This document shows positions 1,271 to 32,952 of a DNA stretch of 32,952 nucleotides, one piece after another. Source of the DNA: Jimgerdemannia flammicorona. Taxonomy: Eukaryota. A model generated the notes under the pieces. That model saw only the letters and a program-made list of their open reading frames with translations, ran no database searches and was not told the DNA's origin. Numbering within the stretch: the first letter of the stretch is position 1; each line of letters starts with the position of its first letter. The stretch spans positions 1-32,952 of the forward strand of contig RBNJ01000326.1 in NCBI GenBank assembly GCA_003990765.1. The letters run 5' to 3'. Both the position numbers and the translations under genes were made by a program.

Positions 1271-3797
1271 TTACCCCAAAAAATCCTTGTTGTACTGGCC
1301 CTGCTCTGCCAATTTATGGATATATTCTCTCGCTGGGGCATCATATGCGTACCCGCCAAAACTCTGCGCCATCAATTCAAACGCCCTGCGCACATCCTTG
1401 GAGCGCCACAGATGTAAATAATAGCCTTATGCTCTGTGATGAGATTCCACACGTGGGATGCATTGGCCATGATGTAGTGCTGAACGTATCGCTTGGGGTC
1501 ATTGCTATGGCGCGAAAAGGCGGTGTGAAGTGCGGTCAAGGTTCCGTCCTCGACAAAAACCTCCAGCTCATCGCGATAGATAAAGTCCTGGTCAATATGA
1601 TGGCAGCCGAAGAAAAGGTAGGCATCGGAGACGCCGCCTTTTGCAGTGGATTTAAGGCCGAGCGCCTGGCATCGTAATGATGGGCGTGATTGAGTTGCTG
1701 GGCAAGGCGAAGGTGGTCTTGTGTCGTTTCACAGATGCTCGGAATGTGGCACCCGGCTGTGCTCTTTCGAGAGTTTGTCGTTGACAATATCCTTGGCGAT
1801 TCCGACGGTCTGTTCGTTGGATATTGGAAAGGTGCGTGGATAGGAGACAGATATAAAAAGCATTGAGATATTTGTACACGTATTTTGAATCTTGACTATA
1901 TTTACCAAGTGACCAGCGTTGGGGTGCTTCAAGGGGCTTCTGGCACTCGAGTATCTCCTCGACTACATCACCATCACAGCGCATAGGAACTCCTTCGTTG
2001 ACTATCGGGTATGTATTTTGGAGATCCAACAGGGTCCGATGCTTGGCAACGAATTCGTTACGCTTGGCCTATCCTTCTTCTCCAGGTTGTGTCAGCGACA
2101 AAAGGTGATCCGCAACATTTTTATGACTCTTCTCGAGCCTCGAGGCGAAGCTGTTCAGGACGTACCGTGACGGGGGAGACAACAAGTCGGCGTAGAAAGT
2201 GAGGACGCTGCGAACGGAGCAAGGCCCTTTGATGACGCTGGCAAGGAAGAAACGGACAAATTGTTGACTTCCTTGATTTAGAAGACGGCATCAAGGATGA
2301 GAAGGCGATAGTTTCAACTATGCGTTCGTCATTCTCACTCTGATACTTCCCGTCTTGGAGTACGGCCTACTTGTCGGATCAGTGATAGTAATATCATTAA
2401 AGCCAAAGCTTTGGCCTGCGAGCGAGCTGGCTGGCGTAATCCTGCTAGCTGTCCGTCTGCGTACCAAAAATAAACGTGATTGGAGGCAGAAGATGTTGGC
2501 AACACATGCGGCAGCAACGGTGACGGGCAACGACGGGAGCGACGGGCAACGACGGATAGGCGGTAGCGGCGGGCGAGGTCTGAGGTTCTAAATGAGTGCC
2601 CTCAGTCGGCTTTGGAAGATTGGTATGTAGGTGGATGGTCACGTTGACGTTAAGTGGGCGAAGGTTTGGGATTTGGGTCGTATGTTGCCGGGGTGTCGTC
2701 GACGTACTTGAACTCGAAACCAAGGCCCTCGTCTGACACGGCGTTCAGCATGTATCCTAACAGATCCTTCTCGCTATTCTTGGAATCGGGGCTAAGCTTC
2801 CTAGCTCTGATCACCTCATCAACGATATCCTGCATCCGCTTCCGTTCACGCTCAAACCGACGATTTGCCTTGATAGGAAGGTGCTTGATGCACTGAGCTT
2901 GCAAGTTGCGTTGCATGGATACGGCAAGGCAGAACGCCATGGCCTGGATGAACGGGTGTCGGGGTGCATCGCACGAGTCAAGCAGGTGGAAGTCATACTC
3001 GAACCCGATGCGGCAAATGGTTTCTAAGGTGAGATTTGTTCAAGTGACGATATTACAGGCTCATTTTCCGCGTATTGCTCGAGGACAGTGATGGTCTGCA
3101 TGACAACATCACCTTCTCCTACTGGTAGGTCTTGACGGCCCGGGTGCTAAAGGCTGGCATGAGAAGCTTGTGGGAGAGCCTCCAATCCATCGTGTCGGTG
3201 TCGCTGGTAAATAGGCAGTTTCCGTCGAGGGGCTTGACCCTCGATCAACGGGGCCCCAGTTTTCTTGAAGTATTCAGACTCTTTGAACGCGATCTCGGCC
3301 ACGGCAGGGTCGTTGGTGTGTATGCTTTCACGGCCCATGATATTTAATTTTACCAACGGACCGTGCTCGTTAAAAAGGCGACGCCAGTTGCCAACTCTGC
3401 GGAACGAACATTGGCAGATATAGTATTAAGAAATGCATAATGAGAGGAAAAATACCAAATAAAGTTCATACAAAAAACGTATTAGGTCAAATACATGCAC
3501 ATTGGGCAGAAGCTCGAAGGGTTACCAACAAACGGCAGCGGCACCAGACCAGAGACGACCTTGATCTTATCGGCGACGGAGACGTAGGCGACTTGCTGGT
3601 CCCGGACCGCGTCAACACCAGACAAGGCATTGCCTTCCGCGTCCTCGAACACGATTTCCCGAGGTTAGAACGGGCGGCGAGTCGATGCAGCGTGTCCAGG
3701 TCGGCAGCCAGACCAGGTTTTATAATGACTCCGCTTTTTTTTCATCTTGACCCTTGAGAACCACGACAAGGGATGTAGTTTGCGATTTAGCGGGCGT
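1271..3797 (-). pseudogene. Pseudogene of a self-sufficient (fused) cytochrome P450/NADPH-cytochrome P450 reductase (CYP505/CYP102-like architecture)
   Basis: Pieces in shifting frames: PLPFVGN (N-terminal Pro-rich motif, ~3520); MVKLNIMG..TNDPAVAEIAFKESEYF; MQDIVDEVIRARK..KDLLGYMLN; flavodoxin start PITFIFGTQT..QDYASQLA (~2450); FAD-domain RRYS..SPLKHP (~1940); NADPH-domain LFFGCHHIDQDFIYRDELE..TAFSR..RYVQH..IYICG; C-terminus GQYNKDFLG* (TAA 1273-1271). Many stops, frameshifts and deletions. A GT..AG intron is retained at 1905-1810. The putative start reads ACG at 3797. Confidence 0.9.
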
Positions 3798-4079
3798 GTT
3801 TGTAGTGATGTGTGGATGATGTTGTTTGGTTGGGAGATTGCGGTGGGAGGGGTATTTGAGTCGGGTATGTTAGGTGCAGACGGTGGGATGGATCCATTGA
3901 GCTTGATCTGGTTTTTGTAGTGTTGAGTGTTGCCAATGGAAGACAATGCAAAGCGGTATTTATATAATTCACGTCGAATGGCGGTCTACAGCGCTACATA
4001 GTTTATATATTCTGATATACTTCAATCCACGCTGCCCAAATTATGATGACGACCCAAAAGTGCAATAACCCAAGTTAGC

Positions 4080-4104: not shown

Positions 4105-4631
4105 GATTTCGTCGCCCAATCCACACTCCCCCACTCCACTTCCCCCCATGGACCACGCACCCAACAGGTCGGATTGGCCAGTTGCATAAATTATCAAGGA
4201 TGTCGAAATAAACAATAGAGACGAGGTTAAAGGCAGCAACCTCCCCAGCGCCTTCACGGCGTCATCCAGATAACCAAAGCCTCGTGCCCAAGTGTAACGT
4301 GAACCAGAATTTCGCCGATATGCTGAGACTGCGTTGGTAACGACGGCAGCCCATGGTCGCGGACATCCGTCGCATATCAGTGCCGAGTCTATGCCAGTAT
4401 AAAATTGTGGCGGGTTGCCGTATCGCGAGTTGAGAGGAGTTGGGTGCCGGCGGAGCAGGTGTTCGAGCCGAGGAACGGGGCTAAAGGGTGTATGTTGAGA
4501 GAAACGAATCACGCAGTCGGAGAGATTCACGTATTGGAAAAAAAAAGTTGATGTTGCACGTCACGCATGACGTCCAGCCCTCTAAGTAGTTTCCATGATG
4601 AGTATTTCAGCCATAGTCCGTGAGATGATGA

Positions 4632-4942
4632 GTGCAGACTTCATTTGGCAGGTCGGTGAGAACTGATGACTGGTGCAAATTTTATTTAGTAGGTCGCATG
4701 GGAGGGGCTTTTCACTTAATGTTCTTGTTTAAATAGTCTGTAAGTACACGGACGATCTGTGTTCAAAGTTAATGTCCTTACGGAAATAGTCTTAAAGAGC
4801 ACGTGACGAGTGAAGACTTTATTTGGCAGGTCGCATGGTAGTGGCTTTTCACTCGGACGATCTGTGTTCAAAGTTAATGTCCTTTAGGTAGGTGACAAAT
4901 GCAGACTTTATTTGGCAGGTCGCATGGTAGTGGCTTTTCACT
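4632..4942. repeat. Compound direct-repeat array of two interleaved motifs
   Basis: Motif A (AGACTTTATTTGGCAGGTCGCATGGTAGTGGCTTTTCACT) is identical at 4814-4853 and 4903-4942, degenerate at ~4673-4716 and partial at ~4632-4654. Motif B (CGGACGATCTGTGTTCAAAGTTAATGTCCTT) is at 4749-4779 and 4854-4884. Confidence 0.9.
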
Positions 4943-6256: not shown

Positions 6257-8394
6257 ATATAACTATTAATCAAAAGAGATACTGATGGCTAAGGATTCTA
6301 GTTTAGATACTTGTATAGACTATTACAGTATGACTTAAATAGAGAGATATAGAAGACAGAATATATACAGATATTCTATAGTAGTATTAACTTATATGCT
6401 ATTAGAGATATTTGTTTAGTATCTTATAGAAGTCATTATATCTTACTTGAAGTTCTTAGAAGAGTGGTTAACTTGAGATATTAAATTGAGATTTATAGTA
6501 GATAAGAGTACTTGATTACTAATCTTAAATTTGATCTCCTATCTCCTAATATTGGTATATTTGACTTATTGTGTCTAGGTCTTGAGTAGGTTATCTTTAG
6601 CAACTTGAATTATTGTATTTATATATTTAATGAGATCTTAGATAGCAGAAACTTTAGAAAGTTCTTTTTTAACTTGAGTAAGTAAGCTTAATGGAGTTTA
6701 TATATCTTGACCATATAGTAACTTGAAAGATATAAAGCCTATTGAGACTTATACTGAGTTATTATAGGTAAACTCTACAAAGATAAGATATTGTTCTCAG
6801 TTATCTTATTTGTAAGAAATATAGTTTCTTAGCATTTGCTTGAAGGTCTGATTTGCTTACTTAGTTTGTCTATTAGTTTATAGGTGATATACTATACTTA
6901 GAGCTTGTTGGGCTCTAAGTATCTTAAATAATATCTATCAGAAATAACTTGTAAATTTTGGATCTTAATTGCTAATCATAATTTTTAGAAGATCATTATT
7001 TTAAGAAGAATATTTTGACAGTGTCAGAGATAGTAGTATTGGTTTTGGTTGGCTCCAACTTAATGGTCTTAGTGAGACAGTCTATGAAGATAATGATAGC
7101 ATTATTTCCTTGTAATATCTTGGGCAGTTAGATAATAGAGTCCATAGTAACTTACTTCTATTTAGTAGCTAGAACTGAGAGAGATTGGAGTAGACTATAT
7201 AGCTGTAATCTTAATATCTTATTCTTTTAGCAGTGATTACAGGTAGATATTCTTTGATATATTAATTCATTACAGATTAGAAGAAGTAACAATAAATATT
7301 GTGAATGGTTTTCTGATATCCCATATAACCAGCAAGAAGAGAGTTATGGTTTTTCTGAAGAATCTTAAAGTAAAAATTATTGGAATTTGAGATATATATT
7401 TTGTTATTCTTATATATGATTTTATTAGTAATCTTATATTCTTCTAGTAGACTTGTAAGAATTTTCTTTATAATTAGATCCTGGTAGAATCTTTCTTTTA
7501 ATTCATCTAAAAGAGTCTTATCTAGAGTCATCTTGATAGTACTAAGATTAGGCCTTCTTAATAAAATATCAGCTATTATATTTATCTTATCTGACTTGTA
7601 AATAATCTTGACATTAAAAGCTTAGATATACTTGATCTATTTTGTCTAATTTGAAAACAGACAGAGATCTAAGTTGAGATATATATATGAGTGACTTGTG
7701 ATCAGTAATGATATATATCAAAGTTTTGGTCCTTGAGATAATATTGCCAATTTTGTAGAATCTCATAGATAGTTAGGAGTTCTTTTTTATAGGTAGTATA
7801 TCTTTGTTTAGTCTTATTCAATTTTTGTAAAGAATATACAAATAGCTGAGATCCTTTACTTATATCTTGAGATAATACTATACTGATTATATATATATAT
7901 ATAGATATATCTATAATAACTATAAACTGTAGGGCTAAGTCTAAGTTATGTAGAGTTAGCATAGTTATTAATTTTATCTTCAGGATTTGAAATATCTCTT
8001 GGTAGACAGGAGTTGATTGAAATGAGTTACTGATCTTCAACAATTTGATCATAGGCTTAGCAATATCAGAGTAATCTTCAATAAATCAGTAGTAATATTC
8101 AGAAGTCTTAAGAAAGACCTGATATCATAGATGTTTACTAGAATAGATCAATCTGAGACTACTTGAACCTTCTTGAGATCAGACTAAATACTATTGACTA
8201 AGATAATATAGCCAAGATATTTTATCTCTTTCTTGAAAAATTTATATTTACTAAGCTTATTAAAGCTATTTTCTTATAATTTCTTAAACACTTGTCTGAG
8301 ATACTTAAAGTATTCTTTTTCTGATATACTAAATATTAGAATATCATCCAGATAGATAATGATAAAGGTATCAAGATATAGTTATGAAACATCT

Positions 8395-8547
8395 TGTTGT
8401 GGAATACTTGGAATGGAGGGAGCAACATTCTGTTTATTGCTAATTTTTACATGCTTTTACGTGTTGCAATTAGTGATATTTACATGATGACATAGTCAAG
8501 GAAGGCTGCGCCACCATATATCGAGTTGTAACCTACATATTTCAATA
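8395..8547 (-). repeat. Copia 3' LTR
   Basis: 153 bp, TGTTG..CAATA on the plus strand, ungapped match to the two 5' copies. Confidence 0.97.
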
Positions 8548-8804
8548 CTCCCACTCAACGAGATATGCAAATTCCCAAACTGCAATACTAAGCTATAACC
8601 ACTGCAAATCTCACTGTAATGTTCAGACCGCTATCTAGAAACCGAAAAACACCCGAATTGCCTGCTTAAAGCTCGAAAAATAGGTTGAAAAGTAGAGATG
8701 TGAATGTTCATAGATGAGTAATGTTGGTAGAAATCACCAATACAGGAATCAATGTTAAAGAAGCTTGCTGTTGCTCTATTATCCTATCTCATCCCGAATT
8801 GTCC

Positions 8805-11800
8805 TTAATTACCAGCGTAGAGTCCCGTAATACTCATTCCTTGTATGCATAAGTCAAACTTTGCCTTTGGAAGGGCTTTAGTCAATGAATCTGCCATCAT
8901 ATATTCTGTTGGGGTGTATTCAAGGTGTATAGTGCCGTTTTCCATGCATTCACATATGAAATGATGCTGTATGTCAATGTGTTTCATTCTAGTATGATGT
9001 ATAGGGTTCTTCACCAAAGCAATCATTGATTGGTTATCTTGCTGGAGTAGCATAGAGTGCTGTTGCTTGTATCCCAGCCCCTTTAACAGTTCTCGAAGCC
9101 AGATAGCCTCCTTTGTTGCCATTGACAATGCTTGATATTCCACTTGCATAGAGGATGTTGCCACTGAAGGTTGCTTATGTGTTTGCCACGAAATGGCTCT
9201 GTTGTTTACTTTAAAGATGTATCCAGTTGTAGACCTTCTGTCATCTAAGTCGCTGGCCCAATCAGCATCATAAGAACCGAGTAGACGTATAGTACTCCCG
9301 CTTTGCCCATTATCACCGCCCAAACTGAGTGTATAGTCTACAGTTTCTTTGATGTACCGAAGAATGCACTTAACTACTATCCAATGCGAATTATCGTAGC
9401 ATGACGAGTATTGTGCCACTTTGTTGACTGCAAATGATATGTCAGATCTCGTCCCGAGTATAAGATACATGAGGGATCCCACAGGGGATGTTGTTATTTT
9501 CGAGCATAGTTCCAGACTTCTTTAACCTTACAGACATCTCCATTGGTATTCTGACTGGTTTGCACTCACTCATGCTGAATTACACAAGTATTGTCTGAAT
9601 GTAGGCTTCTTGGCTTAGGTGTATAGTATGTGCACTCCTGTCACATATGATGGATATCTCCAAAAGGAAAGACATGTCACCCATATCTGTCATCTTGAAC
9701 TTCTTGCGTAATGCCACCTTTACTTTGTTGATCTCACTTGTCATCTCGACCAGAATGATATCGTCAACTCAAATTCCCAGATACACCATTCCTGAGGATA
9801 TATGATGAGTGTATATGCATAGGTCTGCTTCGCATCATTTGAACCCATTCTCTTCTATGAGATAATCATCGATCTTTCGATTCCACAGCCTTGCCGCTTG
9901 CTTAATTCCATAGAGCCCTTTGCATAATTTACATACGAGCTCATTTCCATCATTGTCATATAGTTCACATCTTTGTGGTTGAAGAATGTATAGTTCAGTA
10001 TCCATGTCTCCATTTAGGAAGGCTGTCTTAACATCCATTTGATATATCTATAGTCATACTTGGCTCCGATCGCAAGAAGTATTCTAAGTGAAGTAAGCTT
10101 AAATACTGGGGAAAATGTTTCATCGTAGTCGACTCCAAAGTCTTGTGAATACTCCTTTGCCATGAATTGGGCCTTGTATCATTCTATGCTGCCATTGTTA
10201 TCACATTTAATTTTATACACCCATCAGGATCCTATGGCTTGTTGATTTGCCGGAAGAGGGACCAAGTCCCACATGTTATTCTTGATGAGTGAGTTATACT
10301 CCTCGTCTATAGCCTTTTTCCACTCCTTTTTATCATTCAAATGAATGGCTTCATTGTAGTGTGCTGGCTCACCGGTCATTGCTATGTAAGCACATTCGTA
10401 AGAATCAGCATAGTTCATGTGATGTCTGCTATTGTTGCCACGATGGGATATCTTAGATAGGTCCCAATAGCCTCCTAAATCCGTATCTAGAACTCTGGAT
10501 TTGTGCTTTTGTTTGCCCTTCAGAGAGGTATCCTCTTTGTCATCCTCATCCGTAATTTCCATTATCCTTGGTTCTTGTAACTTCATTTCCATTTGCATGG
10601 ATTGTATTTTTGCTGGCATAGGTCCCAAGGATGTCTTTGGCATAGTCTTTGGTATCATTCCGGATATAGATGTTGTTCCGCTAGCCTTTGCAGTTAGCAT
10701 AGATGTCACTGGCTGTATCATCGAATTCACTGTCAGATTTGAGATAGGAATTTCCACGTAAATTTCCTGCTTAGTCTCTTTGAACTGTACGTCATGTGAA
10801 ATGATCATACATCATTTTTGCAGGTTCTAAAGTCTGTATCCCACTCCATCATATCCAAGGAATATATGCTTATCTGCCTTAGGTTTGAACTTGCCTTGGT
10901 TGCCACCTTTGTCCAGAATGTATACCTCGCTTCTGAATATGCGTAAGTGTGAAATGTCAGGCTTGGATCTATTCCATAATTCCTCAGGGGTAAGATTGCT
11001 GTCGTTCCTGGATTGCTTGCTGGGATCCTTGCTTAGAGCTTGAGAGAAACAACGATTTCGAATATATGCTGCCATATTCACTGCTTCCACCCAAAAGGAC
11101 TTTGGTAAGCCGGCCATATTCATCATCGTTCTAGCCATTTCCACTATCATTCGATTGAATTATTTCACTACGCCGTTTTGCTGAGGTGTATAAGGGGCTG
11201 TCATAGAGTGCTGTATACCGTTCTTCTTCAAGAAGTGTCTGAAACCTTTGTTGATGTATTCTTTACCATTATCTGAGTATAGAGTTTGTATTCTATGTCC
11301 CGTCTCATTCTCCATAGCTGCCTTGAATTTCCAGAATTTGTCAAATGCCTCGTTTTTCCCCACAATGAAATATACATAGACTTTGCATGTATAATCAACA
11401 ATGAATGTAATAAAATACTTCTTCCCGGAGTGTGATGCTGTTTGCATGGGGCCACAAATATCCATATGAATCAAATCGAGAATGCTGGCCGCTCGCTTCA
11501 TTCATTCCTGAAAAGGTTGCTGGGAAGCCTTATTGCCATGCATCCATTGCAAAAGAAATCTGGTAGCATATAGTCCAGTAAACCATACATGGACTTGCTC
11601 CTTATCATCCATTCCAGGCTCGTCTTGCCGATATATCCTAAGCGTTCATGCCATATATGCCAGAGATCCTCTCCAGTCATAGTTGCAGAATATGCGAATG
11701 ATGTGCCACTCAGCATGCCATTGATTGCATATAGATTCCCCTTTTTAAATACATACATTAACTCCTTATTGTTCTTCAGATTGATTACTGTTACACTGTT

Positions 11801-13240
11801 CAGACGTATATTTACTCCTCTGTCTCTGCGAGCCATCATCCGGCCTATCGAGAAGAGGTTCTTACCTATATCTGGAGCATATAGTATGTCCACGAAGGTG
11901 TCTGAAGGTTCATCGACGTTTCCATATAGATATATGTCTATATTGCCTTTTCCTTGAGCATAAATGATGTTATTGTTGCCTAGCTTAATAGATATGGGAT
12001 GCTCAAACTTCTCATATGTAGAGAACCACTCTCGGTGAGCCGTCATATACTATATTGCACCCGAATCCATGAGCCAGACCTCTTTGCTGTATGCATAAGT
12101 GCTGTTCGGCATATAGCTTACATTTGCGCTGGCACTGACGTTGATGTCACTATTTTTCACTGTCTGAAAAGTGTTTTGTCGATCAGAATTTGTAGATGTT
12201 GAACTGGTGGAATTGCATCTGCAACTGGCATTGGTGGAACTGGCAGTTGGTTCTGAATTTTCTCCTATTTCAATGGTTTCTGCATATTGATAGGTCGCCG
12301 CTTCTGCGAAGAATAGACCTCTGCCACTGCTGTTTTCGTTGTTGGCATCCACCGCATTTGTCTGCCATTGTCCTTGCTGTTGGCCACCCTTTTCCTTCTT
12401 CTTGCAGTTGCAGTCCTGCTCACGATGTCCATGCTTATTACAGTAAAAGCATTTACCGTCAAATTTCTTGCATTGCTGGCCTCAACCTTTGTTCGGCTTG
12501 CCTTTGCCTTGTCCATGTACTCCACCATAGAATGCTTTCTCATCATATTCCTCATTAGCGTTGTTGCTGCCTAGTCTTGTTTCCTCATTTAAAAGGCTTG
12601 TGACGACATGCTTATAATCTGATAATCTGCTGGATTCCCTCATTGCAGCGACAACCATATTGTATGCTTCGGGAAGGCCTCATATAAGAGCCAGGACCTT
12701 GTCTTCATCCTTGATGGTGTCCGCCAGCATAGATGTAAGGGAATTCACTTGATTTGCCAGCTCATTGACTTGATTGGCATAGTCCCAGATGCTCTTCTTG
12801 GACTTAATTCGAAGATTGAATAGTTGCGCCTTTAAGTGGAATCTGTTTGGTGTGGATGCCTGTTGATGGTGATTGTGTAAAATCTTCCAGGCTTCATTCG
12901 CCATCATAGCATTGATTACCAGCTTCATTTGCGCATTCGAAAGGGTGAACATAATCTCCCTTAGCACTTTGCAATCTTTCGTGGCATTGTATATCATTAC
13001 TTGCACCTGTGGCTTCCAGTAGTCCTCCAAACCACATTCTTCTAGGAGATTCTTCATATAGTACACCCATATGGTATAGTCCTTATCATTAAAGACAGGA
13101 ATCATCCTCTTTACCATTGACATTGGCACCACTGCCGGAATGTTCATCGTTATGGAAGCGAAACCCATTCCGGCTGTGTTTGTGTTTGTGTTACCAGAAC
13201 TTGGCAGCGCGCTGCTAGCACTGCTTAAACTAGTAGCCAT
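8805..13240 (-). pseudogene. gag-pol: Copia gag-pol polyprotein (stops and frameshifts)
   Basis: gag ORF 12680-13240; knuckle CFYCNKHGHREQDC (~12410-12450); protease WLMDSGA; GAG-pre-integrase WHERLG; IN LDLIHMDICGPM..APYTPQQNGV; RT MDVKTAFLNG..LYGIKQA; RNase H DADWASDLDDRRSTTGY..KHIDIQHHFI. Confidence 0.96.
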
Positions 13241-13291
13241 TGTATAGCATAGTGTAGCATATGTGTAAGAGGGGTGTATAGCTGCTAAGTG

Positions 13292-13303
13292 GGGCTCATA
13301 ATC
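13292..13303 (-). promoter_or_regulatory. Copia primer-binding site, internal (half) tRNA-iMet type
   Basis: GATTATGAGCCC lies 3 nt after the LTR and is one transition from GGTTATGAGCCC, the complement of the tRNA-iMet anticodon arm GGGCTCATAACC. Confidence 0.8.
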
Positions 13304-13306
13304 TTT

Positions 13307-13616
13307 TGTTGTGGAATACTTGGAATGGAGGGAGAAGCGTTCTGTTTATTGCTAATTCTTATGCACTTTTACGCATCACAATTAGTGATGTTTACATGAT
13401 GACGTAGTCAAGGAAGGCTGCGCCACCATATATCAAGTTGTAACCTATATATTTCAATACTTTTGTTGTGGAATACTTGGAATGGAGGGAGCAACATTCT
13501 GTTTATTGCTAATTCTTATGTGCTTTTACACATCGCAATTAGTGACATTTACATGATGACATAGTCAAGGAAGGCTGCGCCACCATATATTGAGTTGTAA
13601 CCTACATATTTCAATA
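13307..13616 (-). repeat. Two tandem Copia LTRs (13307-13459, 13464-13616) separated by CTTT
   Basis: Direct ungapped alignment of the two copies. Confidence 0.97.
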
Positions 13617-14679
13617 CATCTTGTATCAATCTCTGAAAGATTGATAATACATTGGTGAGACCAAATAGTATAACTAAAAATTCTCATTAACTATAGCATA
13701 TCTTAAAGGCAGTTTTGGAAATATCTTCTTCCTTGATATAAACTTGATGATAATTAGTATAGATATCCAATTTGAAAAAGACCTTGATATATAGAATTCT
13801 GTTCAATGTTTTATCTATTCTTAATAATAGATATTAGTTCTTAACTGTAATCTTGTTGAGAATATAGTAGTTAATATATATTTACATAGTACTATCCTTT
13901 TTCTTAATAAAAAGAATAGGTATATTATAGAGTGATTTGCTCAGTTGAATATGTTCTTTAGTAGCTAGGTCTTCTAGTTCCTTTTAAAGAAGTTCTAATT
14001 TAGATTGTAACATAGAATATAGCAACTTATGTAGAGGTTCAGAGTCTGGGAGAATTTTTATTTTATAATCTATACTCCTTTTAAGTGGTAGTTCTATAGA
14101 TAGATTATTTAGAAAAATGTCCTTAAATTCTTGAACCAGAAGTTGGACTGCCTTTGGAAGATTCTTTTCTATTTCTGACTTTGAGGATTATATGATTGCT
14201 AAAAATACTTAAAAAGCTTCTTAAATTAGATTGCTGATATGGTTTCTACTGATACTTTTGTAGACTTCTTTACTTCCAGTGTGACCTTCTTTTCTTCTTA
14301 GTTTAGCATAAGCTTGCTTTCTCTCTAATTAATATAACAGTTATGCAGTGCTAACTAGAGTTTTTTCAGAATAATATAGTATCCTTATAGAGATATAATA
14401 TAGAGATTCAATTTTTTTGAAATACTCTTATATTATATAGAGCAACTTGGCTGCTATTCTGTTAACTTGATATTCTTTTCCATCAGCTATAGCAATCTTG
14501 AACTCTACTTATTATAGTAGACTAATAGAGATAATCTTCAGTTTCTTTACTAGTTCTTTACTAATAAAGTTATCAGATATACTACTATTGATAAATATCT
14601 ATTTCTCATCTTTTGACTTTTTCTTTAAATAGTAGTAGGCTGATATTGATGATACTGATATTCTCCTTATAGCTTATAC

Positions 14680-24003: not shown

Positions 24004-24172
24004 ATATTACTATAAAGTTATAAAATTAATTAAATGTTTATTAATAAATAATAATAATAATATATTCATTAAACTATAAAAAATAATTAAATAGGTTTGA
24101 ACTTACTATAATATAATTCTATAATATTGATAATTAATATTAAAAGTAAAAATAGTAAGTATTAATATATAT

Positions 24173-24860
24173 TGTTACATAGTGGTCACTGAGTTCTTCA
24201 AATATGTCAGATTCTCTCCTCTTATTAGAGTACCTTTCCAAGGTCTTATAGTCCTTAAACTTCTTATCTTTAAACTGTCTTGTTATATCTTAGATTGCTT
24301 GCATGGAATTGAGGATAAGTGAACTTGACTAACTTTATTTTAAAGGAAATAAGAGGGGTATTTATACAAAATATAATTCAATAGTTGCTAAGTTATAAGC
24401 TAAATATAAATTCAAATAAATAAATAAAATACTGGAATACAGAAAACTATGGTTGTAAGTATAAGTTCAAGTATCTATACAAATAGTAATACAAGTTCAG
24501 AATATCAGTAGAATTTTGGTAATATAGAAAAAGGATACCAGAAGAATAATAGTTATATAGAAAAAGGATACTGGTAGAATTCAGTATTATCAAGAACTTA
24601 GAGCAGAAAGTTCAGGACTATGGGGGCTTTATCTTCATCACTATCATTAAGACTAGAGGTTAGAGACAGGATGTCTTCAAAGGAGATGAGGTCTATAAAT
24701 ATTTCATCTATTTCACATATATCATACATTTCACATGCTTCATACATATCATGTGAGATGATGTCATTGCTGATGACATCATTATATTTGGCAGTAGGGG
24801 CTCTTCAATCTATGAGGTTCTTTTCTACAAAATAAGAGACAAATGTGGGGTCTTGGAGAG
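24173..24860 (-). repeat. Truncated 3' LTR of Gypsy C or a sibling family, including the C-terminal part of the U3 ORF (~24855-24598)
   Basis: Homologous, with several indels, to 29824-30514. It abuts integrase-core sequence directly, with no PPT. Confidence 0.85.
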
Positions 24861-24861
24861 A

Positions 24862-27800
24862 TGAAGAGTAGTTCTCTTGGGGTAAAGTGTGTGCTCTATA
24901 ACCATATGTCTTATAGGATAAAGAGGGTAGTTGGGAGGTAGTTATCCCAATTCTCATATGTCTCTGAGATTTTTGCCAGGATGTTCTTGAGGGTCTTATT
25001 GGTTCTCTCTGTCAGTCTATTTCCTTGAGAGTGGTATATAGTAGTCTTGATGTGTTGAATCTTATATTTCTGATACATTATCTCATGAAATCTATTGACA
25101 AATTCTGTGCCATGGTCTGTTGTGATTTGCTTTAGTGTCTTATAGTGGCAGATGATTTCTTGGTACAGGAAGTCGACTATAGAGAGGGCATTAGCTTTTT
25201 GTAATGCTCTTGCTTCTATTCATTTTGTAAAGAGGTCTACAATAACTATAATATAGCGGTTTTCTGATAGTGTTACTGGTAGTGGCCCAATGATATTCAT
25301 TGCAATGTGGTAGAAGTGGATAGGCTCAATTCTTGATGATCTGGATATCTGGTCTTATAGATCTTATTTCTGTTTTTGGCACTTGCCAAACTCTTTGACA
25401 AATTGGCACAGGTCTTCTTCCATTTTGGGCCACCACATGATTCTTCTTGTCTTATTGTATATATTAGTTCCTCCTAGGTGTTCTTGCTCATATACTTTCT
25501 TCATTACTTGATACTTCTTGTTTTCAGGTATTACTAGCTTTCCTCCTTTTCTGAGTATAGTATTGTCTAGTTCAAACTGTTTTCAAGTCTGGTTGATAAT
25601 GGTGATTATCCAGGGTTCAAGATGGTTGGGCATCTTCCACTGCCCAAGATAGCTGATTAATCCATAGTATAGCTCCTTATTCATGTTGAATAGTCTTGGT
25701 GGGGGTGTTTCAGAGTATCCTTGAGAGTATATCAGCATTGGTATTGGTTCTTCCTGAGTAGTGCTTGACAGTACAGTTATACTCTTGCAGTCTGTAGATC
25801 TATCTGGCATATATTCCTTTGGGGTTTAGAGTGTAAAATAGCCAGGTAAGAGCAGAATGGTCTGTTTGAATAGTGAAGTGTTTTTCAGCTAAGTAGTAGT
25901 GGAACTTGTCTACTGCCCAAACTACTGCTAAGTATTCAAGCTTACATGACTTATAGTTCTGTTATGCTCTACAGGTATCTCAGCTTGCATAGGAGATGAC
26001 ATATTCATGTCCATCTTTCTTCTGAGCTAGGACTGCCCCAAGTTCTATAGTACTTACATCTGTCTGCAGGATGAATTCTAGGTTCCAATCTGGTCTTCTG
26101 AGGATAGGTGCTTGGGTCAACTTGGTCTTGAGTTCATTGAAGGTCTCTTGGTACTTCTTGGTCCATTCAAATTTGGTTTCCTTCTTCAGTAGCTTGTAGA
26201 TAGCTGCTGCAATATTGGAGTATCCTTTGATGAATCTTCTGTAGTAGCTGGCCAGTCCAAGGAAGGCATGGACTTCTATAGTTATTCTGGGTCTTGGGTA
26301 GGCTGCAATAGTCTCAATCTTCATGGGGTCTGTATAGATTCTGGTCTGATTGATGAAGTGTCCTAGGTAGGTGATTTCCTGAGCTACAAACTTGTATTTC
26401 TTGGGCTTGATGTAGAGGCCATGCTCCTTGAGCTTCTTGAGGGCTAGCTATATATGATTGACATATTCCCGTATAGTGTTGCTGAAGATAATTATATCAT
26501 CAATATAGATAAAGAGACATTTTCTAATATCATTGCTGAAGACTCTGTTCATCATTCACTAAAAACTTGCTGGGGCATTGCACATTCCAAATGGCATTCA
26601 CAGGTAGATATAGGTGGTATCAGGTATAATGAAGGCTGATTTCTCACTAGCATCTTGAGTGAGATCAATCTGATGAAAGTCTGAGAACAGATCCAAGGTG
26701 GTGTAGTATTTGACTTTACTTCTAAGGGTGGTAAGGATTTCTTGAATATTTGGCAAGGGCTGTCTATCCTTCTTGATAATTGCATTGAGCTTCCTGTAGC
26801 CAATATAGAGTCTTAGTGCAAACTCTCCAGACTTGCTTCCTTTCTTCAGAGCAAAGACAATAGGTAAAGCCCAGGGACTGATAGCTTGCTTGATGATTCC
26901 AGTTTCTTCTATTTCCTTGAGTTCTGCTTGCAGCCATTCTCTGTAGGCAGGTAGTATAGGTCTAGCTTTCTGGTAGATGGGCTTAGTATCACCAGTGTCA
27001 ACTTTATAGTAGTACTTGGATTATTGATTGTGGATATCTCTGAAGTCTGTAGCAAGTACTCCTTTATTCTGGTATAGGATCTTGAGGTATTGTTCTTCCA
27101 GGGGAAAGTTTTCTCCAATAATATATATATATGCTTGTTCTGGTCTCTGTCTTTCTTGTGCTCAAGTTCGGTAATCTTAATGGTGGCATAGACTCCTCTT
27201 CCAGTAGATCCAAAGCCTTGTTCTTCTATCTTGGTCTTGATGAGTTCAATGGCTTTAGTGATCTTGGGCTTTTTGATTTTGTAGATCAGCATCTGGCCAA
27301 TCCTATCATACTTCTTGATTTCAAATAGAGTGGTGGGGTTGTGATTTCTGACTATGAGAAAGATCTCATCAGTGTAATCAGGGTTAATTACTCCTCCTTC
27401 AACTGAGATTTTACTTTTGATCAGACTGCTCCTGGTCTTGATAATTCCAGCATAGTTCTCTGGCAGCTTGACTCCAATTCTAGTGCCAAGTAGGGTGGTG
27501 GTCTGTGGTTTGAGAGTAGTATCTTGAATGCTGACAAGATCCATTCCTATGGCTCCTTCAGTCTTGTATTCTGGGATCTTGGCTTTGGAGTGAAACTTCT
27601 TGACCTTGAGGGTGATATCTGATTCTTGTTCCTCCTAATTGTCACTGTCAGCCTGAAACTCAGGGGGCTAGTCATCTTCTTTGGCTTCCTTTTTGCTTCA
27701 GCAGCTTCTTGCTCATATTTCTATTAGCAGATTTTCCTGACTTCACTGATATAGGACCAGCAGTCATTCAGGTGTTCAGAGCAGTACATCCTAGTACCAT

Positions 27801-29703
27801 GGGAGTATCTTTCTTGAGGGGCATAGCCATCGATGATCTTGTTGTATCACTGCTTATCTGTGAGCTTAGGTGTCTTGTTCTTGTTTTTATTCACTAAGTA
27901 TATAAAGACCTCTGTGTCCTCTTCATCTCCTTCCTCTATGTCTGATAGGACTCCTTTGTGGACATTGATAGAGACTTGTACCTTTCTTTCTCTATAGTTG
28001 ATCTGTATCTTCTGAGCATTGAGGTTGATGATGGCCTTGGCTTTGTAAAGCCATTGGTTGCCAATGAGGATATCATAGTTGGTGGCACTTGTGACAATCA
28101 CATCTACTGAAATAGTAGCTCCTCCTATCTTGATGGAGACTTCTCAGATTTTGCCAAGGGGGGTAGCTTATGTACTATCTGCTGTAACATAGACCATCTT
28201 GGGAGACTCTTCAATGTCCCAGCCTAGGTGGTCAATTGCCTTCTTGCTTATGAGACATCCTCCAGCACCAGTATCAATGATGGCATCAAAGATACAGTCT
28301 TCAATCTGATATAGAGTATAGGCTGATATCTTGTACTGGTTTTCAGATTCTTTACTTGAGTTTTTGGATTCTTCCTATACATTGTGAGCTTCTATAATCT
28401 TGTACTCTTGATTCTTGGCAGTAGTTGCAAGTTCTACTCTCAACTGCTGTCTGAAGGCAGGGACTTCAGCTAGCTGTCCAAAAGTAGCATTGACCTTCTG
28501 TTTCTTGAGGTCCTTATAGATATCATACTGGTGGATCTTGGTCTTGCACAGCTTCTGTTCCTTCTTGCTTTCACTTTCTCCTGAGACTGGAGTAGTGCCT
28601 TCAATAATTTGGTGGGCAGCTTTGTCTAACTCCATGTCTTGATCAATCTCCTCAGGTTGAGTCTTGCTTTGAATAGTGATAGCTGGAGTCTTCTTTGGTC
28701 TTCCAACTGGCTTACTGTTGCTCTTCTTGTCATAGAGCTTGGACTGAGTTCTGGTACCTTCAGTAGTAGGGTAGAATTCGAGCTCCTTATAGTATTCTTT
28801 ATCATCAGTATCACCAATCTCCTCAATGACTACTGTATTGATTTGTTCTTTGGTTCTGCTAGCATTGCTTGGTTGGGCTTTGCATCTTGTTTTGATCATA
28901 TAATTCTTTGCATAGTGGCCTTCTTCTCTATATCTGAAGCATGTGATATTGCATTCTTCTGTAGTAGCTGCAAATCTCTGCACTGGTCTCTTGTTGGCAC
29001 TTCAGACTTCTTTAACAATATCACCAAGGTGTGCAGTCATCTCAGCAAACTGCTTGGTAAGTTCCTCCACTGGGTCGGCTTTGATTGTCTTGGGGGTAGG
29101 TGGGGATGGTTGTCTGTTTACAACTGTGGCAGATATGATACTAGTTGGCTTTGATGGCTCCATCTTGATGTCAGTTATTTTCTCTATTGAGTGTTCAGCA
29201 GAGTATCTGGCAGTCCAATATCTCTATGCAAAGACCACTTTCTTATCAAGAGTCAGTGCAGCTGGGGTAGACCAGATTGCTAGGGCAATTTCAGAGTGAA
29301 CTCCTTTGAGGAAGATTGAATCTGCTATTTATTCCTTGAGGGCATCATCATAGCCAGCTAAGATAATCTGGTGGCAGATTCAGATATAGAATGAGTTGGG
29401 ATCTTTACTGAGTCTCTGGCAGATAGTATTGAGTTGATCCTTGAGAGCTTGCTTGATCTCTTCAGTATAGTATGTTGTTCTGAGGAAGGCCTTCATGTTG
29501 GCAAGTTTGGCTACACCATTATTAGCAATAGTAGCTATATTGAACTTGTCTCTGGCAGATCATCTGAGGCTGACTGGTAGAAGGGCCAATTGTACATCTA
29601 TACCAAGAGCTCATATGGTAGTGAATTGTTCAAAGTCTTCAATGAAGATCAGAATTGACTCTTCAGTAGTATATCCATAGAATGTGGGGGAGTGCATTTC
29701 CAT
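24862..29703 (-). pseudogene. gag-pol: gag-pol of Gypsy C
   Basis: ATG at 29703 (MEMHSPTFYG..); knuckle CFRYREEGHYAKNY; protease AIIDTGAG (~28270) and YDILIGNQWL; RT ~26950-26340; FLGLASYYRRFIKGY and FILQTDVS (ORF 25980-26324); IN HLGG..WWPKM and IIGPLP..RYIIVIVDLFTK. The IN C-terminus is missing. Confidence 0.92.
27200..27616 (-). pseudogene. dut: dUTPase domain of Gypsy C, between protease and RT
   Basis: LKVKKFH..GAIGMDLVS..RSSL..EGGVINPDYTDEI..DRIGQM..QGFGSTG (ORF 26909-27544 plus upstream codons). Confidence 0.95.
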
Positions 29704-29823
29704 CTTGTCTTGAATTCTTGCAGGGGTGACTCTTGTAGTCAGGGTAGTTGTTGTGGGGGTTATTTATTTTTCAGCTTGAAAGTGAGGAATTCATCTTGAA
29801 TCACCAGCCAATGGGCACCAAGT

Positions 29824-31332
29824 TGTCATGTAGTAGTTGCTGAGTCCTTCAAATATGCCAGATTCTCTTCAAGGTGTATCTCTTAGACTAACTCAAGTTT
29901 GTTATAAGCAAGTTTTTATTGTAGTGCCTTCTTAAGATATTATAGTCCTCAAACTTCTTATCTTTAAAGTGTCTTGTTATCTCTTAGATTGCTTGCAAGA
30001 GATTGTATGTAAGTGAACCAGAACTAACTTTATTTCAAAGAAAATAAGAGGGATATTTATACAAAATATAATTCAATGGTTGCTAAGATATAAAGTTAAA
30101 TATAAATTCCAATAACTAAAATAAAATGCCAGGATCGAAAAAACTGCTAAGTTCCAGGGTTGGCACTGATAGTTGTATAGATTCAGAATATTGGTATAAT
30201 TCAGTATTACCTCAGAATACCAGTACTGGCATTATTTGGTATCACATCAGAATATTAGTACTGGCATCATTCACTATAACCAAAGGACTTTTAGAGTAGA
30301 ATGTTCAAGACCATGGGGGCTTCATCCTCATCAGAGGTCAGGATGTCTTCGAAGGAGATGAGGTCCATGAATTCATCATTATCACATAGGATGACATCCT
30401 CACCAATGACATCATCACATTTAGTAGTAGTGGCAGGAACAAGGAGATCTGGGACTCTCCAGTTTATGAGGTTCTCTTCCACAAAATAGGGAACAAATGT
30501 GGGGTCTTGGGGAGGTCTAACCTGGATACTTGGGCCTTGGAATACTGAGATCAATCCTTGTAGGAATTGGTCTAGGTTGTCCTGAAGGATGGGGTACCAG
30601 AAGTCTTCTACTTCATCACTGTCAAGGATGATAGTGGACTGGGCTTCTGTAGCCATTCTGGCTTCTAATGCATTGATATGGTGGGCTGACAGGTCTCTGA
30701 AGTCTGAGACTCTAATATACTTTAAGTTGAGGATTGACCATAGTATATGCCTGAAGATCTGATGGATCTTCTTAGCTGTTCTTATTTCATGTATATCTAT
30801 GAGAGTGGTATCTTGTAGCTCTTGAGTACTGGCCTATGGAAACTCCTGGCAGAGGAGATTTCCTATTTCATATTTCTGCCACATTTGGAGGCATTCAGTA
30901 GCAATGGTGATCCTTGTTTCCATTTCATAGTAGTAGAGGATATAATTATAAGGGTCATCAGTACCTAGGTTTATACTAGGAGTCCTTCTTGAGCAGGTCC
31001 TCATGGCTCTTCTGATGTCTTGGAACATCCTTTCTTCAACTGAGGTGCCTTGGTAGTTCCTTGACCTTGAGGTTTGGCAAGCAGCAGGCATTTTGTTCAT
31101 AGTAAGTCTTTGTGCTATTTTGGGATTGGTAGGTCTTATTGGTTACTGCTACTGCAGTTTCTTGATCCTTCTTTATATTCCTCAAGATACCTATACTGTG
31201 GTCACAATGACTCACAGTTGGTCATCATTGCTCATCTTATATATCATATGATCTTCTTGTGCTCTGATCTAGTGACTTATAAGAAAAGGCTGTCTCCTGT
31301 ACTGATGTCATCATTCTGGGGTCACCATTACA
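29824..31332 (-). repeat. 5' LTR of Gypsy C (~1509 bp)
   Basis: TG..CA ends; PBS 3 nt downstream; TATA-like TATAAATATCCC at ~30061-30050; composition changes abruptly at 31333. Only the part up to 30514 has a second copy here, so the right end is inferred. Confidence 0.75.
30291..31100 (-). pseudogene. Unknown accessory ORF (~269 codons, one premature TAG at 30836-30834) inside the Gypsy C LTR
   Basis: Track ORFs 30834-31100 and 30291-30656 are in the same frame, and the interval between them is open (ASTQELQDTTLIDIHEIRTAKKIHQIFRHILWSILNLKYIRVSDFRDLSAHHINALEAR). The homologous C-terminus is preserved in the other LTR. Confidence 0.8.
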
Positions 31333-32952
31333 ATATTTATAATATTTTATTTATTTTTATTAATATATTTAGTATAATATACTGGCTCAATAAAGACTAA
31401 TTATAAGATTGAGACTGCTATTTAGATTAGCTTGAGCTTCTAGTTACTTTGTTAAAAAGTAATAAAATGTTTAATATTTTTGCTTAGATATAGATATAAA
31501 TTCTATTTTATATAATGTAGACAATTTTGATAATTTTCTAATTAGGTAGTAAATTCCTAGATAGTACAGAATTTTCTTAAGTAGTAGATTATTCAAAAAT
31601 AGCAGACTTCTCTTAAGTAAAGTTATATTAAAGACTGCTTTATTTATGCAAATAAATTTACTGTAAAGGTATATCTTATTCTAAACTGACTTTGTATAAG
31701 AAATAGTGACAGACTTTTTCTTTTTATCAGAAAGTAGACCAGAGTGTAAATTTGAAATAAGGCTTACAATCTTCTAAAAGTAGCTTTAGAGCAGGTATTT
31801 CTCCTAAGTATTACAATCTTTTCTAGATCAAGTAGCTCTTGGCAGCCATATTTCTTGAAGTATAGTATGTAGACTTAACTTTTACTATTGAACTTTTTGG
31901 ATAGAGGTTTATTTACTTGAATCTCTGAGATATTTTATATAGTTATAGTTATTATCTAGTTACTATCTGAGTAATTATAAAATATACAGTAATGCTATTT
32001 TAGAGAGAGAGTGATCAGGTATGCTTGCTGAAGACAGGTATATCTACTGGATATAGATATATCTGCTGAGTATAGATATATTCTTAGAATATTGATCAAT
32101 ATATTTAATTTAGTATATCTGACTAATTATATAAGTTAAAATATATATAAGTAAACTATGCTATACTGAGTATTTGTATCATCTGGCTATACTATATTAT
32201 TTACTTATTATATTAGCTCTTACTAAAGATTAGTCTATCTCCAGACTGTATTTTAGTTATTATTGTAGTATTTATAGATATTTTCTACATCTATATCTGT
32301 GATATTATCTTCTTCAGTATCTGAATTATTTTATTCTAGAGGCTCTTCTTCTTCTTCAGAGAACAGAACTTTAATGTAGTTGATAATACTTAGGTAGATG
32401 AGTAGAGTTATTCTTTGAAAGTTGTTTAAAGAGAACTTGACCTAAGTCAGTAGGGTAATATTTATTTATAGATTATATAGAGTCTGTCTGCAGCAATAAT
32501 ATTTCTTGGGCAAGCTGGGGGATTTGTACAAATACTGAAACATTGGCTAGGAGAATGTGAGGTGCTGGGGGACTTTTGGATAGCTATAGGGGACCGGCTA
32601 GGGGTTGAAAGGAGATCAGATGGAGAGAGAGATCACTGGGAAGATTTGGAATCTAGACTTGTGGGAGGTGTTGGCAATGGGTGGCTTACTGTAGGGTGGG
32701 TTATGGCAGTGTGGGTGGGGTTGGCTGGACATTGGCTCTTTGTTTTTGAGGAGGGACAATAGATAGGGATATGGAAGAAGTTGTTGAGATGGAAGGAGTT
32801 GGTGGCAGATCTGCTGACTGAGTGGTAGATTAGATAGAGACCCCAAGGTGGGCGACATCATCATCTGGTAGAAGGGATCTGTGAACAGAGTGGTGGGCAG
32901 ATGGAGATAGTGTTTGATAAAGTGGTCTTTCATCAAGAAGGGGTAGGGGGGG
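31333..32952. other. Degenerate CpG-poor sequence of unknown origin; AT-rich to ~32480, then G-rich on the plus strand
   Basis: Composition only; no domain recognised. Confidence 0.4.

Follow-up and report, generated by a model that had tools for sequence, protein, structure and literature searches.

A selected accessory gene inside the long terminal repeats of Ty3/Gypsy retrotransposons from Jimgerdemannia flammicorona

We describe an accessory gene whose product defines a new protein family and which lies inside the long terminal repeats (LTRs) of a Ty3/Gypsy retrotransposon family of Jimgerdemannia flammicorona, in a place known from retroviruses. The gene is present as a broken open reading frame (ORF) in positions 1 to 32,952 of contig RBNJ01000326.1, the whole stretch of 32,952 nucleotides analyzed here, hereafter the window. 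The ORF was under purifying selection as a protein while the family that carries it, family A, amplified. Related ORFs occur in three further families (B, C, and D) of the same genome, and sequence comparison indicates that the gene has probably been exchanged between Ty3/Gypsy lineages, with a change of its position relative to the polypurine tract (PPT).

Results

The window element carries a long ORF in its LTR

The window element is an env-less, dUTPase-bearing member of the Ty3/Gypsy group. Family A displays paired LTRs with TG...CA ends, a target-site duplication (TSD), a primer-binding site (PBS), a PPT, and the domain order protease (PR), reverse transcriptase (RT), RNase H (RH), and integrase (IN). 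A related open gag-pol frame (L098) contains a CCHC knuckle and reads CCHC-PR-dUTPase-RT-RH. The family A integrase tail, as found in element L099, gives no match to the Chromo domain that marks chromoviruses. No primer tRNA match was assigned to the PBS-like site. The features of the element are as follows.

24169..24172: 4-bp TSD to the right of the 3' LTR, bases identical to 31333-31336
24173..24860, minus strand: 3' LTR remnant, the second and incomplete LTR copy
24598..24855, minus strand: what remains of the ORF within the 3' LTR, a C-terminal part with one TGA and then the matching TAA at 24600-24598
24860..24864: deletion junction joining the integrase core to LTR nucleotide ~820, relative to L099
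24911..25219, minus strand: piece of the integrase core, C-terminal part lost (PF00665, weak, E 0.0024)
25980..27020, minus strand: RT and RH, broken (PF00078, PF17919, PF17917)
27200..27586, minus strand: dUTPase domain in the PR/RT interval (PF00692, E 9.7e-26)
28375..29703 (start approximate), minus strand: gag region, decayed
29808..29823, minus strand: PBS-like site directly after the 5' LTR
29824..31332, minus strand: 5' LTR, 1,509 bp, TGT...ACA (TG...CA ends), ends matching those of other copies
30291..31091, minus strand: LTR-encoded accessory ORF, 266 codons from the MP start common to its relatives
30834..30836, minus strand: premature TAG that breaks the window copy
31333..31336: 4-bp TSD to the left of the 5' LTR, bases identical to 24169-24172

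The ORF lies on the minus strand and measures 269 codons when counted from the ATG chosen in the original prediction (31100) to the TAA ending at 30291; the frame from 31142 to 30291 can be read through with an X at its single stop. The prediction of such a frame with one TAG in a Gypsy LTR of about 1.5 kb is borne out, as is the claim that the second LTR (24173-24860) keeps the ORF C-terminus and the same TAA. It had also stated that no PPT separates the ORF from the rest of the LTR, and inspection by eye agrees, with no PPT remnant past the family A stop codon. This copy of the element is dead and its 3' LTR truncated: with L099 as reference, ~1.56 kb has been deleted, with loss of the PPT and of the greater part of the second ORF copy. 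Because its 3' LTR is a remnant without a PPT, the window alone cannot prove that the ORF is located in the LTR.

Elsewhere in the window, a fragmented P450/NADPH-reductase fusion gene resembling BM3/CYP505 and probably containing introns occupies positions 1300-4000 (minus strand), flanked by tandem arrays at 725-882 (three 53-nt units) and 4625-4942 (four related 51-nt units); a P450 of this type suggests a fungal host. A Ty1/Copia-like element at 8377-13617 (minus strand) is better preserved than its AT-rich neighbors and has repeats of ~170 nt (8377-8548, 13289-13460, and 13446-13617) that are doubled at one end. Two LTR-like pairs (5540-6069/16082-16612 and 16618-17026/23581-23998) mark old, very AT-rich elements, both apparently nested around the Copia-like element.

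Paired and solo LTRs alike carry the ORF

A search of the same genome returned 6,107 candidate places, a figure that is not a copy number, and 150 of these were scored. Four of the six two-hit regions examined contain complete LTR pairs; in the remaining two the 5' LTR is truncated. The complete pairs have LTRs of 1.51-1.56 kb that are 86-91% identical and carry the ORF in both members, with a purine tract (PPT) abutting the TG of the 3' LTR. L099 provides a further family A pair (94% identical). The predicted location in both LTRs, 3' of the PPT, is thereby seen in 4/4 complete-pair elements and L099, as well as in TSD-flanked solo LTRs. The opposing layout, pol-ORF-PPT-LTR, is absent from the window's family and present only in the homolog from the chromoviral family C.

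Among 79 LTR copies, 65 are full-length with flanks: 31 follow a PPT, 22 precede the PBS-like site, and 12 do neither. An exact 4-bp TSD surrounds ten of these last 12, identifying them as solo LTRs, and six of the 12 hold an open frame of 270-284 codons. In most long-frame copies the ORF start codon occupies LTR nucleotides 241-243. An ORF 3' of the PPT that is present in both LTRs and in solo LTRs corresponds to a sag-type layout.

Family A insertions have 4-bp TSDs, mostly in alternating AT-rich DNA (ATAT, ATAG, GTAG). Fungal chromoviruses, unlike family A, usually have TSDs of 5 bp. At one locus (L066:632-993) the 5' end of a family A LTR abuts the start of a family B LTR, head-to-head.

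The ORF evolved under purifying selection as a protein

Selection was assessed on a 212-codon core in 80 family A copies by counting changes per column, with CpG columns excluded and deamination-type transitions separated from other changes; the resulting ratios are not codon-model estimates. Non-deamination changes shared by at least two copies comprise 39 synonymous and 15 nonsynonymous changes (pN/pS 0.08, p 2e-18), far below the value of ~1 that would speak against selection and in line with the original prediction. Private changes give a pN/pS of 0.44, and deamination-type changes one of 0.94-1.04, as expected from decay after insertion. Reading the same columns in two shifted frames yields 1.94 and 4.30. 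For comparison, the RT-RH region of the same family gives 0.03 in 39 copies, and shared changes in the ORFs of families C (16 copies) and D (23 copies) give 0.34 and 0.23. Copies were picked as best protein matches or for open frames, which lowers the private pN/pS and inflates the share of open frames; since the deamination class stays at 0.94-1.04, the choice of copies does not account for the 0.08.

Insertions and deletions tell the same story. There are no shared indels within the ORF core, and 27/30 shared indels in the tail preserve the frame (three shift it), versus 2/23 in the non-coding LTR (21 shift it), which upholds the earlier argument from frame-preserving indels to selection on a protein. 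It is extremely improbable that this is no protein gene, its frame being open by chance or through a constraint on DNA or RNA, and as regards past function that proposal is already refuted. Most sampled older copies are broken, as it would predict, but it is at odds with the frame-specific synonymous excess, the in-frame indels, and a protein homology that spans four families, with identities of 28-61% and BLASTP E values against family A no worse than 3.7e-21.

The product has a basic N-terminus and an acidic tail

The ORF product comprises a basic, arginine-rich N-terminus (net charge +1 to +8 over the first 40 residues in 8/9 proteins), a conserved core of ~200 residues, and an acidic, indel-tolerant, strongly negative tail of variable length that contains 17-36% Asp/Glu. 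DLIxF is found in 6/10 tails and PxxLNF in 7/10. Both motifs occur in families A and C and PxxLNF in family B; family D has neither and contains W/F/Y-rich acidic stretches instead. The motifs are kept while the spacer changes length in frame. All nine proteins lack a transmembrane segment, the maximal 19-residue Kyte-Doolittle mean being 0.39-1.05. The description of the product as not env-like therefore stands, and the position between pol and PPT is found only in family C.

The protein had been called unknown, and homology searches name no family for it. Window, intact, and remote proteins have no match in Pfam; 23 alignment members have none in PHROGs; a four-family profile finds 0 matches among PDB sequences at E 10; and the ESM Atlas returns nothing at 0.9 or TM 0.5. 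No homolog was confirmed among 74 candidate stretches in a viral contig set. In a metagenome contig set, one candidate of 287 matched 19 residues of the ORF core (E 5e-5; L097:8001-8057, on a 42-kb contig) and was set aside as probably due to chance. No DNA-binding motif was recognized in the product. AlphaFold2 run on 14 family A copies gave a mean pLDDT of 33; this model is unusable and no fold search was made from it.

We tentatively interpret the LTR as a cassette for a nuclear regulator, either an activator or an antagonist of silencing, a reading by analogy to which we give slightly less than an even chance. The basic N-terminus, a folded core, and the acidic tail with its hydrophobic motifs would make up such a regulator, which is the weakest step of the proposal; a tail of this kind would suit many functions, which counts against it.

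Another candidate role is that of a Nef-like cytoplasmic adaptor, whose tail motifs (DLISF/DLIDF and PxxLNF) would recruit the coat, autophagy, or ubiquitin machinery for the removal of a host restriction factor or for particle traffic. The frequency of the motifs and their persistence through in-frame spacer changes favor this role, and the motifs may resemble clathrin-box and LIR motifs. Such short motifs are nevertheless frequent in acidic tails, both are absent from family D, and the N-terminus is not of the myristoylation type, so we hold an adaptor to be unlikely. The arginine-rich N-terminus could also belong to a factor that acts on RNA, exporting or stabilizing unspliced genomic RNA in the manner of Rev or CERV (CERV of Cer1 is said to be an LTR-retrotransposon export factor) or suppressing RNA silencing; the swapping of the gene between lineages, described below, would suit a host-directed RNAi suppressor. 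Against this stand the shortness of the basic stretch, the lack of any RNA-binding domain in Pfam searches, and the lack of any visible splice route, and an RNA-level role is rather improbable.

Four families share the ORF across Ty3/Gypsy lineages

Protein searches, both word-based and with full HMMs, returned as relatives only members of this family, which are unnamed or 'hypothetical' metagenome proteins. These metagenome relatives, used as probes, led to three further ORF families in the same genome, whose identity to the family A ORF is 61% (B), 41% (C), and 28-29% (D). The family B ORF starts ~280 nt into the LTR, and DNA alignment between the LTRs of A and B is limited to the ORF and the stretch just before it. 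Family D has a 2,350-bp LTR pair with 92% identity, and both members contain the ORF, after a purine tract. Family C is a chromovirus (PF00385, E 1.4e-12; PF24626) with an ORF-free LTR of 808 bp; here the ORF fills the interval from chromodomain to PPT, and its stop codon runs into the PPT. The dUTPase precedes the protease in family C (L142, L145) and occupies the PR/RT interval in A and D (L098, L155).

The RTs of A, C, and D are only 39-42% identical to one another. The pol of family B, read from two decayed loci, resembles that of D (RT 74-78%, RH 77-80%, PR and dUTPase 66-69%) and matches that of A at only 45-46%. Among the B loci found, none is a full element with its LTR pair. Its DNA before the LTR is 74-78% identical to that of D, and its PPT and PBS are D-like. 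The B ORF, by contrast, is 61% identical to A and 30% to D. In an ORF tree A groups with B at 98/97, and a topology constrained to pair B with D is rejected with moderate support (p-AU 0.0275, in a quick tree with long branches). The combination of a D-type pol with an A-type ORF in family B suggests that the gene probably moves between lineages.

Such exchange between backbones makes a partner in Gag or Pol less likely and favors the host, or signals borne on the cassette, as the target. The product could be a particle component or a copy-number control factor directed at Gag or Pol, for which Ty1 p22 is the model; selection about as strong as that on pol and retention of the ORF in a pol-deleted family C derivative (L143) would fit. 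It shows no similarity to Gag, however, and its tree conflicts with the pol relationships, where Gag partners would be expected to co-descend, which makes this role quite unlikely. For a regulator, too, the foreign backbone of family B is awkward if the product activates the downstream promoter in a sequence-specific manner.

The family C derivative (L143:5685-9599) has two LTRs that are 92% identical and has lost gag and most of pol. It still has its accessory ORF and the region of the integrase tail, and may represent a non-autonomous family that keeps the gene. Downstream of one family D ORF lies a long tandem repeat array (L153:2800-5450), and internal repeats make the LTRs of this family differ in length.

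Each LTR contains two candidate promoters

The window LTR contains the following candidate expression signals.

30029..30034, minus strand: polyadenylation signal AATAAA
30054..30061, minus strand: downstream TATA box of sequence TATAAATA, candidate genomic RNA promoter
31172..31178, minus strand: upstream TATA-like box, candidate ORF promoter, ~85 nt before the ORF start
31208..31214, minus strand: TGAGTCA box in an RTGAC-rich stretch upstream of the ORF

The upstream box, ATATAAAA, lies near LTR nucleotide 155 (nt 141-175) in 67/74 family A copies, and a TATA-like box precedes the MP start by 60-85 nt in every family (in B and D as judged by eye). In family C, TATAAATA stands before the internal ORF in 11/11 copies. 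Another candidate for the ORF promoter, TATATAAG near LTR nucleotide 90 in the window, was rejected as a decay product present in only 3/74 copies. TGAGTCA, which we take to be an AP-1/Gcn4-type site, is found in 57/74 family A 5' ends. RTGAC occurs five times in each of two young family A copies versus 1.2-1.4 expected, and modestly exceeds shuffled sequences in A, B, and D (p 0.003-0.05, uncorrected and for a motif picked by eye); family C shows no enrichment (p 0.13-0.38). The motif was not recovered when the 5-mers of all four families were screened without bias.

Downstream of the ORF, TATAAATA precedes AATAAA by 26-27 nt in 65/71 family A LTRs, forming a block ~235 nt before the LTR end that is also found in family D LTRs and in the ORF-free LTR of family C. 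The position of this block would place the ORF in U3 and make R very short. The original prediction had put the ORF in U3 upstream of the LTR TATA box; its order relative to that box holds, while the assignment to U3 itself is read from the same block. Located in U3, an ORF would come last in the genomic RNA, at its 3' extremity, and would need a message of its own.

We propose that each LTR has two promoters. The upstream TATA box and the bZIP-type boxes would drive a short ORF mRNA ending at the AATAAA of the same LTR, and the downstream TATA box would start the genomic RNA at or just past that signal, so that every LTR, solo LTRs included, could be a complete promoter-ORF-poly(A) unit. Two contig sets guessed to be RNA were compared with one LTR and the internal region of L099. 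Contigs of the X2 set, possibly DNA and of unrankable depth, cover the L099 LTR, including the ORF, plus U5; they depart from the reference near both LTR ends, and no discrete ORF mRNA is present among these possibly genomic sequences.

Fungal mobile DNA carries toxin/antidote and drive genes, and a selfish toxin/antidote or nuclear-drive factor that favors element-bearing nuclei or spores would be well served by a self-contained cassette present at thousands of loci. We consider this very unlikely, as there is no second gene, toxin fold, or toxin motif, and a very high copy number cancels the advantage.

Discussion

The closest layout is that of mouse mammary tumor virus (MMTV) sag. Sag is a superantigen and a membrane protein, whereas the product described here has no Pfam match to that family and no membrane anchor. 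Like sag and the LTR ORFs of betaretroviruses, the present ORF is a selected gene, probably in the U3 of a long LTR, that is kept in solo LTRs and has a candidate LTR-internal promoter; it differs in lacking detected homology and in being confined to the LTR of a Ty3/Gypsy element without env. The virus that carries sag is an enveloped mammalian retrovirus, and the ORF family here also has a relative outside the LTR, in family C. Sag is described as lying mostly in U3 with several promoters, one of them inside U3 (PMC4667437), and long LTR ORFs as known from MMTV sag and some betaretrovirus-like elements (PMC4667437, PMC2664473).

A second parallel is foamy virus Tas/Bel1, a protein of ~300 residues; searches of Pfam and PDB sequences with the ORF products returned no match to it. 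The likenesses are an acidic C-terminal region and an own promoter (here a candidate) upstream of the 3' LTR, and the family C layout of pol, TATA, ORF, PPT, and LTR mirrors that of Tas/Bel1. The differences are that the whole unit sits inside the LTR in A, B, and D and that an activator role is proposed here by analogy only. The activation domain of Tas is acidic and C-terminal, and its gene has an internal promoter (PMC517496).

Additional ORFs (aORFs) of LTR retrotransposons have been placed in the internal region, mostly between pol and the 3' LTR; the review describes none inside an LTR and reports sense aORFs to be env-like with transmembrane domains, with Grande gene23 having its own promoter and a nuclear product (PMC7264820). 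In bdelloid rotifers, ORF3 types are common to several lineages (PMC5408684). The present ORF shares with these aORFs its conservation, sense orientation, place after pol and before the 3' LTR in family C, and occurrence of one ORF type across distant lineages, and is unlike them in its LTR position in A, B, and D and its lack of a transmembrane domain. The backbone is like that of Tmt1 and PosPlaTy3, with gag-PR-dUTPase-RT-RH-IN in A and D, and with dUTPase ahead of PR plus a chromodomain in C. dUTPase is known from these fungal Ty3/Gypsy elements, and in the portion at hand a figure legend mentions an 'add. ORF' of unassigned function, which may bear on novelty, and no LTR gene is described (PMC2864245). 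The accessible part of PMC4299795 contains nothing relevant to this comparison. A literature search with most matches at title level and thin coverage of subscription literature found no LTR-encoded ORF in a retrotransposon.

The preferred interpretation, a nuclear regulator, would follow the logic of foamy virus Tas: made first from an internal promoter, the product would then switch on the LTR, raising transcription of the element in trans either as an activator or against host silencing. Older family A copies retain 0-6 CpGs versus 28-39 in young ones, and this heavy loss suggests methylation-based silencing as the pressure. VANC-type anti-silencing factors of transposons cause sequence-specific loss of methylation on cognate copies, and the ORF product has no Pfam match to them. 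The broader scenario, in which a mobile gene-in-LTR cassette of a new protein family was swapped among lineages, passed from the env position into U3, and encodes a trans-acting activator or silencing antagonist with solo LTRs as sources of the factor, is doubtful when taken as a whole.

LTRs are treated as non-coding and are masked by annotation pipelines, and a selected gene inside them runs counter to this practice. It gives high-copy Ty3/Gypsy families a layout reminiscent of complex retroviruses and makes solo LTRs possible gene copies and not dead ends. The internal position in a chromovirus and the LTR-borne position elsewhere offer a possible natural before-and-after pair for tracing the growth of an LTR around a gene. 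Should the product counter silencing, it would offer a direct handle on the retrotransposon overrun of some fungal genomes, and thousands of dispersed solo LTRs could supply a factor that would allow bursts of the whole family and would have helped to inflate the genome.
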